Assembly: GCA_028275775.1 (NCBI GenBank)
Contig: JAPWTZ010000004.1
Span: 1 to 32,000, forward strand
From: Candidatus Nanopusillus sp.
Lineage (GTDB): Archaea; Nanobdellota; Nanobdellia; Nanobdellales; Nanobdellaceae
DNA length: 32,000 nucleotides
Reading direction: 5' to 3'
In this document: one piece after another, positions 2,873 through 28,756 of the stretch
How positions within the stretch are numbered: position 1 is the first letter of the stretch
Layout of the letters: each line of letters starts with the position of its first letter
Translations under genes and position numbers: made by a program
The notes under the pieces: model-generated
What the model was told of the DNA's origin: nothing
Databases searched by the model: none
What the model saw: only the letters and a program-made list of their open reading frames with translations

Positions 2873-2905
2873 AAATAATTAATATTTTAACTATTTTATA
2901 TTTTT

Positions 2906-2956
2906 TCAGGGAGGAGGTGTATTCATCATTTATTCAGTCGCGCGCAACATCATCAT
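2906..2956 (-). ncRNA. C/D box sRNA (2'-O-methylation guide)
   Basis: Minus strand reads ATGATGA (C, 2956-2950), TGTTGCGCGCGA (12-nt guide), CTGA (D', 2937-2934), ATAA, ATGATGA (C', 2929-2923), ATACACCTCCTCC (13-nt guide), CTGA (D, 2909-2906). This is the canonical archaeal box order and spacing. It lies in a local GC-rich island in AT-rich DNA. The 5' flank TTAT can partly pair with the 3' flank AAAA/ATAA. Confidence 0.8.
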
Positions 2957-27461: not shown

Positions 27462-28289
27462 TTATTCGAATATTTTTTGATATATTTCTTTTAATTGACT
27501 TGGAACAACGTGAGTATATATTTGTGTAATATTTAATGAACTATGACCAAGTATTTCTTGTATATATCTTATATCAACACCTTTTGATAATAATGTTGTC
27601 GCAAGAGAGTGTCTTAATACATGTGGAGTTACTTTTTTGTTTATTCCAGCTTTTTTTGCAATATTTTTTATAATTCTTTCTACTTGTCTTGATGATAATG
27701 GAAATATATTTTCAGTATTTATTTTATTTATATAATCCTTTAATTCATTTAATAATTCTTTTGGTATTGGTACTATTCTTTCTTTTCCCCCTTTTCCATA
27801 TACTTTTACAAAACCCTCTTCAAAAATTATATCATTCTTTTTTATTTTTACTAATTCTGAAACTCTTACTCCTGTATAAAATAGGAATTTAATAATTAGT
27901 TTATCTCTATAATTTTCAGCATTTTCTATTAATTTATTTAATTCATCATATGTAATAAATTTTGGCAATCTTTTATCTACCTTTGGAGCTTTTATTTGTT
28001 TTGCCAAACTTTCATTATCTAAAAATTTTAAAAATGATGATAGAGCTCTAACATATAATCTTAATGAATTTGAATCCAATTTTTTCTTAACCTTTATTTC
28101 AGCTAAAAATTTTAGGATTAAATTTTTATCTAAAGAATTATTAATAGATTTTGTATCTGTAATAATTATTCCATTATTTATTAGGAATTCTAAAAACCTC
28201 TTTATTATACCTGAATATGTTTTTATTGTATTTTTAGATTTTCCCTGTATTTCTAACCATACTTTATATTCTTCAATAATTTCATTCAT
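27462..28289 (-). CDS. xerA: Tyrosine recombinase, XerA-like
   Basis: 275 aa. It has an N-terminal SAM-like core-binding domain and the catalytic motifs TGVRVSEL (Arg), HVLRHSLAT (His-x-x-Arg) and LGHSSLNITQIYTHV (His...Tyr). Its stop codon abuts the pdaD stop with zero spacing. Confidence 0.88.
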   Translation of the reverse strand: MNEIIEEYKVWLEIQGKSKNTIKTYSGIIKRFLEFLINNGIIITDTKSINNSLDKNLILKFLAEIKVKKKLDSNSLRLYVRALSSFLKFLDNESLAKQIKAPKVDKRLPKFITYDELNKLIENAENYRDKLIIKFLFYTGVRVSELVKIKKNDIIFEEGFVKVYGKGGKERIVPIPKELLNELKDYINKINTENIFPLSSRQVERIIKNIAKKAGINKKVTPHVLRHSLATTLLSKGVDIRYIQEILGHSSLNITQIYTHVVPSQLKEIYQKIFE

Positions 28290-28348
28290 TTATATTTCAG
28301 GAATTTTGTGATATAAAAATTTTAAATTATAAAAATATTATAATTTTA

Positions 28349-28403
28349 TCCCTACCTGCCATGCACTGGGGATATATGAACCAGTTCCTCCAGGTAGGGG
28401 AGA
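28349..28403 (+). ncRNA. GC-rich structured hairpin, candidate H/ACA-like guide RNA
   Basis: CCCTACCTG (28350-28358) pairs with CAGGTAGGG (28391-28399). The internal loop is CCATGC / TCCTC. The inner stem is ACTGG (28365-28369) / CCAGT (28381-28385). The 11-nt apical loop GGATATATGAA has GA (28371-72) and GA (28378-79) able to form tandem sheared pairs (K-loop-like). An AGA/ATA (ANA-like) triplet follows the lower stem about 16 nt from the base of the upper stem. Strand and class are not certain. Confidence 0.4.
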
Positions 28404-28406
28404 ATA

Positions 28407-28455
28407 ATGATGTGGTTGGCTTGAAACTGAAAAATGATGAATACGGCTACGCTGA
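28407..28455 (+). ncRNA. C/D box sRNA (2'-O-methylation guide)
   Basis: Plus strand reads ATGATGT (C, imperfect, 28407-28413), GGTTGGCTTGAAA (guide), CTGA (D', 28427-28430), AAA, ATGATGA (C', 28434-28440), ATACGGCTACG (guide), CTGA (D, 28452-28455). It lies in a GC-rich intergenic island. The boxes are present only on the plus strand. Confidence 0.7.
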
Positions 28456-28477: not shown

Positions 28478-28756
28478 TTAGCTTCCAAAGAATATTTTTC
28501 TATGTTTTTCGGAATATTCATCAAATATTTTGTAAAGTAAATCTTTATCATAACCATATTTTTTCATTAAATAAGATATTATTTCTATATCTTTAAGGTC
28601 TTTTTCTTCATATCTTTTTAAATAAGTAAATATTTTATCTACTAACAAATATTCCATCTTAGCAATATATAATTTTATTTTCTCTTTTCTTATTTTTAGT
28701 TCTATTTCATTATTTATATTCTTCTCTTTGGCAATTTCTTTAATAAATCTATGCAA
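28478..28756 (-). CDS. Hypothetical small protein at the position normally occupied by ribosomal stalk protein P1/L12
   Basis: 92-aa ORF from a TTG start. An internal ATG at 28657 would give a 59-aa product, MEYLLVDK...RKIFFGS. Charged and helical, with no clear family. See findings for the P1 hypothesis. Confidence 0.4.
   Translation of the reverse strand: MHRFIKEIAKEKNINNEIELKIRKEKIKLYIAKMEYLLVDKIFTYLKRYEEKDLKDIEIISYLMKKYGYDKDLLYKIFDEYSEKHRKIFFGS

Follow-up and report, generated by a model that had tools for sequence, protein, structure and literature searches.

Two groups of archaeal guide RNAs are known in which a box H/ACA hairpin is followed directly by a box C/D sRNA. Pab21 (Pf1) of Pyrococcus, which targets 16S 891, forms the 5′ portion of a longer transcript, snoR9 (RF00065), and is found with and without the C/D motif (PMC2377435, PMC4652768). 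In the Sulfolobales RNAs Sso1/Sso-159, Sto1/sR4 and Sac1/sR39 the C/D motif comes directly after the H/ACA part and is co-transcribed with it, and Northern blots of Sso1 revealed long and short forms (PMC2651775); the targets of these tandems are pre-tRNA-Tyr U35 and 23S sites. The C/D part of the RNA described here has orthologous guides in sR13 and sR18 of N. equitans and in the A1408/G1508 sRNA predicted in N. acidilobi (Seistrup 2017) (PMC3491384, PMC5389701). sR13 stands alone and couples an A1408 guide with one for the anti-Shine-Dalgarno (anti-SD) site A1534. In N. equitans, measurements have shown both Am1408 and Gm1508, which were attributed to the orthologous guides (PMC5389701). Finally, Pab19 of P. 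abyssi, with its long 5′ guide strand, and the atypical sR136 of S. islandicus share by position, and by a U-G-C context, the helix-34 target discussed below (PMC2377435, PMC11077068); neither has been described as joined to a C/D sRNA, and they are compared here by target, not by sequence.

We analysed a 32,000-nt stretch of DNA (the window) from Candidatus Nanopusillus, a very small symbiotic archaeon of hot springs, and it contains a tandem of the same order: on the + strand, a single-hairpin box H/ACA guide, a 3-nt linker and then a C/D sRNA (Table 1). The preliminary description had pointed to a G+C-rich patch of ~110 nt, and positions 28349-28455 indeed have 46.7% G+C, versus 25.2% across the window. 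Its remark that composite guides are not known from archaea does not hold, given the published Pyrococcus and Sulfolobales RNAs. Like Pab21/snoR9, the window element has a single 5′ hairpin running into a C/D sRNA, with different guides; since RF00065 had no match in the window, either at its gathering score or at E values up to 10, the element is a layout analogue of that family and not a member of it. At gathering scores, Rfam had no matches anywhere in the window. The order of modules is also that of Sso1, Sto1 and Sac1, whereas the three predicted targets of the window RNA all lie in 16S.

Table 1. Coordinates of the tandem, its flanking features and related elements in this and other genomes.
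Feature	Position	Strand	Remarks
Single-hairpin box H/ACA guide module	28350..28403	+	Fold, covariation, conservation in 17 genomes
Lower stem, 5′ arm (partner 28392-28399)	28350..28357	+	3/8 pairs change on both sides
5′ guide strand of predicted pseudouridylation pocket	28358..28363	+	6 bp with 16S helix 34, 3′ of target U-G; 96% identity in 8 distant relatives
Upper stem, 5′ arm (partner 28381-28385)	28365..28369	+	100% paired; one G-C/A-U/G-U covarying pair
K-loop (GA ... UGA), predicted L7Ae site	28370..28380	+	GA and UGA invariant, loop middle variable
3′ guide strand of predicted pocket	28387..28391	+	5 bp with 16S helix 34, 5′ of target U; 96% identity
ANA box AGA	28401..28403	+	One base past stem, 14 nt from pocket, 3 nt before box C
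Box C/D sRNA (C 28407-13, D′ 28427-30, C′ 28434-40, D 28452-55)	28407..28455	+	Ortholog of N. equitans sRNA13
D′ guide	28414..28426	+	Predicted 2′-O-methylation of 16S A1408 (E. coli numbering)
D guide	28441..28451	+	Predicted 2′-O-methylation of 16S G1508
Candidate TATA (box A), ~26 nt 5′ of hairpin	28320..28327	+	Sequence inspection; weak, as background is 75% A+T
xerA-type tyrosine recombinase, divergent neighbour	27462..28289	-	Pfam PF00589, E 3e-43
AbiEii-like nucleotidyltransferase gene fragment, outside RNA	28478..28756	-	tblastn, 50-81% identity to C-terminal part
Second H/ACA + C/D tandem, same genome	L104 = G000:C24:16701-16810	-	Predicted targets 23S helix-69 U and P-loop G
Stand-alone H/ACA hairpin orthologous to the window's	L106:1499-1560 = G019 N. 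equitans C1:427539-427600	+	
Three-guide C/D RNA (C, D′, C′, D, C′, D) behind H/ACA hairpin	L018:1140-1211 (G012; L081, isolate MC-1)		

Folding of the + strand reproduced the hairpin architecture that had been proposed, with a 9-bp lower stem (28350-58/28391-99), a 6+5 internal loop, a 5-bp upper stem (28365-69/28381-85) and an apical loop with tandem G-A pairs. The folding energy was slightly beyond chance (z -2.1; 7/200 shuffles). Because folding energy alone is weak evidence, we compared relatives for conservation and compensatory changes, a check that the preliminary description had suggested. Sixteen other genomes carry the element, with identities of 75-99%, and among the 12 distinct sequences 97% of the stem cells were paired, compared to 21-60% in slid controls; four pairs had changed on both sides, a kind of count that kinship inflates. 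When 185,579 species were scanned for the pattern, 16 records matched; all were from Nanopusillus, Nanobsidianus, Nanobdella, Nanoclepta or their kin, which assigns the window to the Nanopusillaceae. Identity reached 96% in the pocket strands and 75-83% in the lower-stem arms, against 54% in the upstream and 37% in the downstream flank. This conservation pattern, with the pocket strands kept best, is the one expected of a guide RNA. Invariant GA and UGA around a variable middle are the signature of a K-loop, so that the apical K-loop suggested earlier stands as a predicted L7Ae binding site. Both A residues of the ANA box are invariant, and the box reads AGA in most of the genus, ACA in six relatives and AUA in one. 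The ANA-like triplet was thus correctly placed at AGA, at 14 nt from the pocket, where the preliminary description had counted ~16 nt from the base of the upper stem; ATA, also offered as the box, was rejected since it is not conserved whereas AGA/ACA is. The working pocket uses a register one base away from that originally given, with the top G-C pair opened, as the original register leaves three unpaired bases and scores below the shifted one. Lower stem, pocket, upper helix, K-loop, distance to the ANA box and bipartite pairing around an unpaired U-N all agree with an archaeal box H/ACA guide.

Of the genome's own 16S, 411 nt at the 5′ end and 93 nt at the 3′ end are all that is assembled. 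As the parts holding helix 34 and A1408 are therefore missing, the 16S of a close relative (G002) was used. The search for rRNA complementarity to the pocket, another of the checks suggested, gave a top target: when every U in 16S and 23S was scanned, the U-G in 16S helix 34 ranked first in 7 of 8 genomes. Pairing consists of 5+6 bp around the unpaired U-G, with 14 nt to the ANA box, and 14 of 300 shuffled pockets were as good. This geometry satisfies the published H/ACA rules, which ask for a helix 2 of 5-6 bp and 14-15 nt to ANA (Muller et al., PMC2377435). The target U lies at about position 1013 (E. coli 1052 by our own numbering), 79 nt past the equivalent of 966. In S. islandicus, the mapped pseudouridine 1009 lies 79 nt past 930 and has been equated with P. 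abyssi 1017, the target of Pab19 (PMC11077068). From this spacing and context, we infer that the helix-34 U is the equivalent of Sulfolobus pseudouridine 1009. The pocket has a mismatch in one genome, that of a Nanobdella (G006). A second candidate, 23S U87, pairs over 9 bp and was not accepted because the pairing is lost in several relatives.

Downstream of the hairpin, a C/D sRNA had been expected to begin 3-7 nt past the ANA-like triplet, and boxes C, D′, C′ and D are all present, with guides of 10-13 nt and complementarity that follows the N+5 rule, as in archaeal box C/D sRNAs. The best Rfam match of this part was snoPyro_CD (E 1.4e-5), a match that falls below the gathering score of that family. 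The D′ guide forms 11 Watson-Crick pairs at the top of helix 44, and 1 of 300 shuffles was as good; in G012, three positions of the guide differ along with their partners in the target, and the 11 bp are preserved. The top target of the D guide is at the junction of helices 44 and 45 (9 pairs; 26/300 shuffles as good). Its site at G1508 is present in the genome's own 16S (C40:16651), and the guide is the same as that of N. equitans sR18. Taken alone, the shuffle results for the pocket and for the D guide are of modest weight. Across the island, the N. acidilobi locus and the window are identical but for one base in the linker, so the C/D half of the element is in effect already published; the main text on that sRNA (PMC5389701) makes no mention of an attached H/ACA hairpin. 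A Nanobdella (G006, L016) and a Nanoclepta (G013, L015) have a drifted D guide that fits G1508 poorly, possibly retargeted to 16S G1494 in G006 or to 23S in G013. The window holds another C/D sRNA at 2905-2956 (- strand). Its D′ guide pairs with 16S near 1198, and its D guide pairs over 9 bp with the same stretch of helix 34, at a G ~4 nt before the target U.

The linker from the ANA box to box C measures 2-5 nt in all 17 genomes, which leaves no room for a second promoter. T/A boxes similar to that found ~26 nt upstream of the hairpin precede the element in several orthologs, and T-rich tracts follow box D. The short linker, the T/A box and the T-rich tracts together make it likely that both modules are made as one transcript. 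A scan for sigma-70 promoters and hairpin terminators, a type ill-suited to archaea, had no matches. The divergent xerA neighbour had been correctly identified and is present in 16 of the 17 loci, the remaining one lying where a contig ends; nothing in the 17 loci compared pointed to a functional link between xerA and the guide RNA. On the other side, the "small convergent ORF" of the preliminary description turned out by tblastn to be an AbiEii-like nucleotidyltransferase remnant with a frame change near its end. The intact gene has ~200 aa in relatives, and the neighbour at this side varies between loci. The remnant occupies the slot after rpl10 (P0), which is the usual place of rpl12.

Genes for a Cbf5-type protein, Nop10, L7Ae, Nop5 and fibrillarin are present in the genome; no Gar1 gene was found in the assembly, which is 80% complete. 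We propose that a single promoter, divergent from xerA, would drive an RNA of ~107 nt with two guide modules. In the 5′ hairpin, L7Ae would bind the K-loop and Cbf5-Nop10 the ANA box, and the pocket, paired with 5+6 bp around the helix-34 U-G, would direct conversion of the U into pseudouridine. The 3′ module, with L7Ae, Nop5 and fibrillarin, would methylate A1408 through the D′ guide and G1508 through the D guide, so that all three predicted targets are in 16S around the decoding site. As with Pab21 and Sso1, part of the long form is probably cut, here at the 3-nt linker, each module then acting as an ordinary guide. With good confidence, although its transcription, processing, protein binding and modifications are deduced from sequence, we read the element as such a partly processed two-module guide RNA. 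The preliminary description had left the choice between co-transcribed guides and a composite RNA: a co-transcribed tandem is very probably correct. That N. equitans encodes the modules as separate genes favours a tandem with partial processing over an obligate composite of the scaRNA kind. Eukaryotic composite scaRNAs of the U85 type target snRNAs and carry, between boxes C and D, a nested two-hairpin H/ACA domain with a CAB box. Unlike these, the window RNA has one hairpin, outside and 5′ of box C, and rRNA targets.

How the tandem was put together can be followed among relatives. In N. equitans, the element model located sR13 at 318.9 kb, where it lacks a preceding hairpin. A hairpin that shares both pocket strands lies at 427.5 kb, with an ACA box and a T tract and without a C/D sRNA downstream; the three guides thus lie in three separate genes. 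Randau 2012 (PMC3491384) reported a single H/ACA RNA in N. equitans, located elsewhere, and does not list the 427.5-kb hairpin. When the hairpin model was run on 150 genomes across the phylum, N. equitans was the sole match. The G018 hairpin runs into an RNA of the sR13 type, and the second guide of that RNA pairs over 9 bp with a canonical anti-SD tail. G012 has an sR13-type unit followed by an extra C′/D module with the G1508 guide, giving three guides (Table 1), and its own 16S tail fits the middle guide poorly. For the second guide of G012 and G018, C1397 is one of two target options, the other being a canonical anti-SD tail. The other genera have the A1408 and G1508 guide pair and a 16S tail without an anti-SD. 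At the 16S 3′ end (G000:C40:16600-16692, L033-L044), the anti-SD is absent in most Nanopusillaceae, degenerate in G012 and intact in N. equitans. These observations suggest that the G1508 guide replaced the anti-SD guide as that rRNA tail was lost. In a 16S tree, G012 groups with N. equitans against the rest (100/99), which is consistent with addition of a guide followed by loss. Since the three-guide form comes from one assembly and G018 has no rRNA, the order of events is a proposal. The start of a G018 contig (L017:1-58) carries an inverted copy of the C/D sRNA, probably an assembly artefact.

The alternative that deserves most attention is that the 107-nt RNA works uncut, as a dual RNP that would hold helices 34, 44 and 45 simultaneously and serve as a checkpoint or chaperone of small-subunit assembly in organisms without RsmA/Dim1. 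Such a role for sR13 was proposed by Seistrup et al. (PMC5389701), and a search of 16 genomes of the order turned up no full-length RsmA; the location of the three targets around the decoding site, the linker that never exceeds 5 nt and the 23S-only targets of the genome's second tandem also speak for it. Yet N. equitans likewise lacks RsmA and encodes each of the three guides in a gene of its own, G018 has a paralogous helix-34 hairpin attached to another C/D sRNA, and both published tandems are partly processed. Moreover, G043, a genome outside the order, has an sR13-like RNA plus a full RsmA, so that sR13 is not tied to the loss of RsmA. We consider the dual RNP unlikely. The same low probability applies to its evolutionary version, according to which the uncut RNA would be a three-site assembly factor of RsmA-less nanoarchaea that arose stepwise when a free helix-34 H/ACA gene joined sR13, the G1508 guide was added as a third one and the anti-SD guide was lost along with the disappearing anti-SD tail, the linkage ordering the modification of helices 34, 44 and 45.

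That only the C/D sRNA guides, the hairpin being a 5′ leader for protection or maturation that has lost pseudouridylation (for instance when ACA drifted to AGA), is very improbable. The AGA box in most of the genus, the pocket mismatch in G006 and the Gar1 gene not found in an 80% complete genome would fit such a leader, but conservation is higher in the unpaired pocket strands than in the stems, the stand-alone ortholog of N. equitans retains these strands, the genome has Cbf5-type and Nop10 genes, and the archaeal rule is ANA rather than strict ACA (PMC2377435). We give hardly any credence to the island being a DNA element or a short coding sequence, that is, an xerA operator, a recombination site or the 59-codon ORF at 28361. 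The island adjoins xerA in 16 of 17 loci and does contain the start of that ORF; against this, the ORF ranges from 2 to 63 codons among relatives, and was rejected as a gene for lack of conservation, G-U pairs and complementarity to rRNA are properties of an RNA and specific to one strand, and in N. equitans, where sR13 is expressed, the modules lie away from xerA. The partly processed tandem thus remains our preferred reading.

The joining of modules extends beyond this locus. Because a hand-written H/ACA scan missed the hairpin of a second tandem in the same genome (C24; Table 1), covariance models were used. A broader hairpin model, trained mostly on joined examples, gave 41 distinct candidates in 20 genomes of the order, 31 with a C/D sRNA 0-5 nt downstream and 10 without. 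Twelve genomes of the genus have the C24 family in joined form; its hairpin is free in G012. Among the 13 C/D candidates in the genome, two only, those of the window and of C24, have a hairpin leader. Two more H/ACA + C/D tandems were seen in G018 (L103, L107; C4, C2), the C2 hairpin having a pocket for the same helix-34 U and a different C/D partner. H/ACA-like hairpins also lie just 5′ of the 16S gene in G016, G017, G013 and N. equitans (L123, L150, L151, L159), and in G008:C11 and G003:C26 (L162, L163) an H/ACA-like hairpin with ACA stands a few bases before an apparent tRNA gene.

The H/ACA-then-C/D design was thus known twice before and the C/D half had been predicted; what is new is the evolutionary series and the third target at the decoding site. 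The literature searched contained no report of the attached hairpin, the stand-alone N. equitans ortholog or the three-guide relative. These results add a third archaeal lineage to the short list of those with H/ACA-C/D tandems; each of the two H/ACA hairpins detectable in Nanopusillus is followed by a C/D sRNA. The N. equitans ortholog points to an H/ACA gene there beyond the single published one. For the RNA suggested by Seistrup et al. as a substitute for RsmA/Dim1, a third predicted target at the decoding site is added, in a lineage of which N. acidilobi and Nanobdella aerobiophila are cultured species. The relatives form an unusually clear series of guide exchange, including a three-guide form, that appears tied to the loss of the anti-Shine-Dalgarno sequence.
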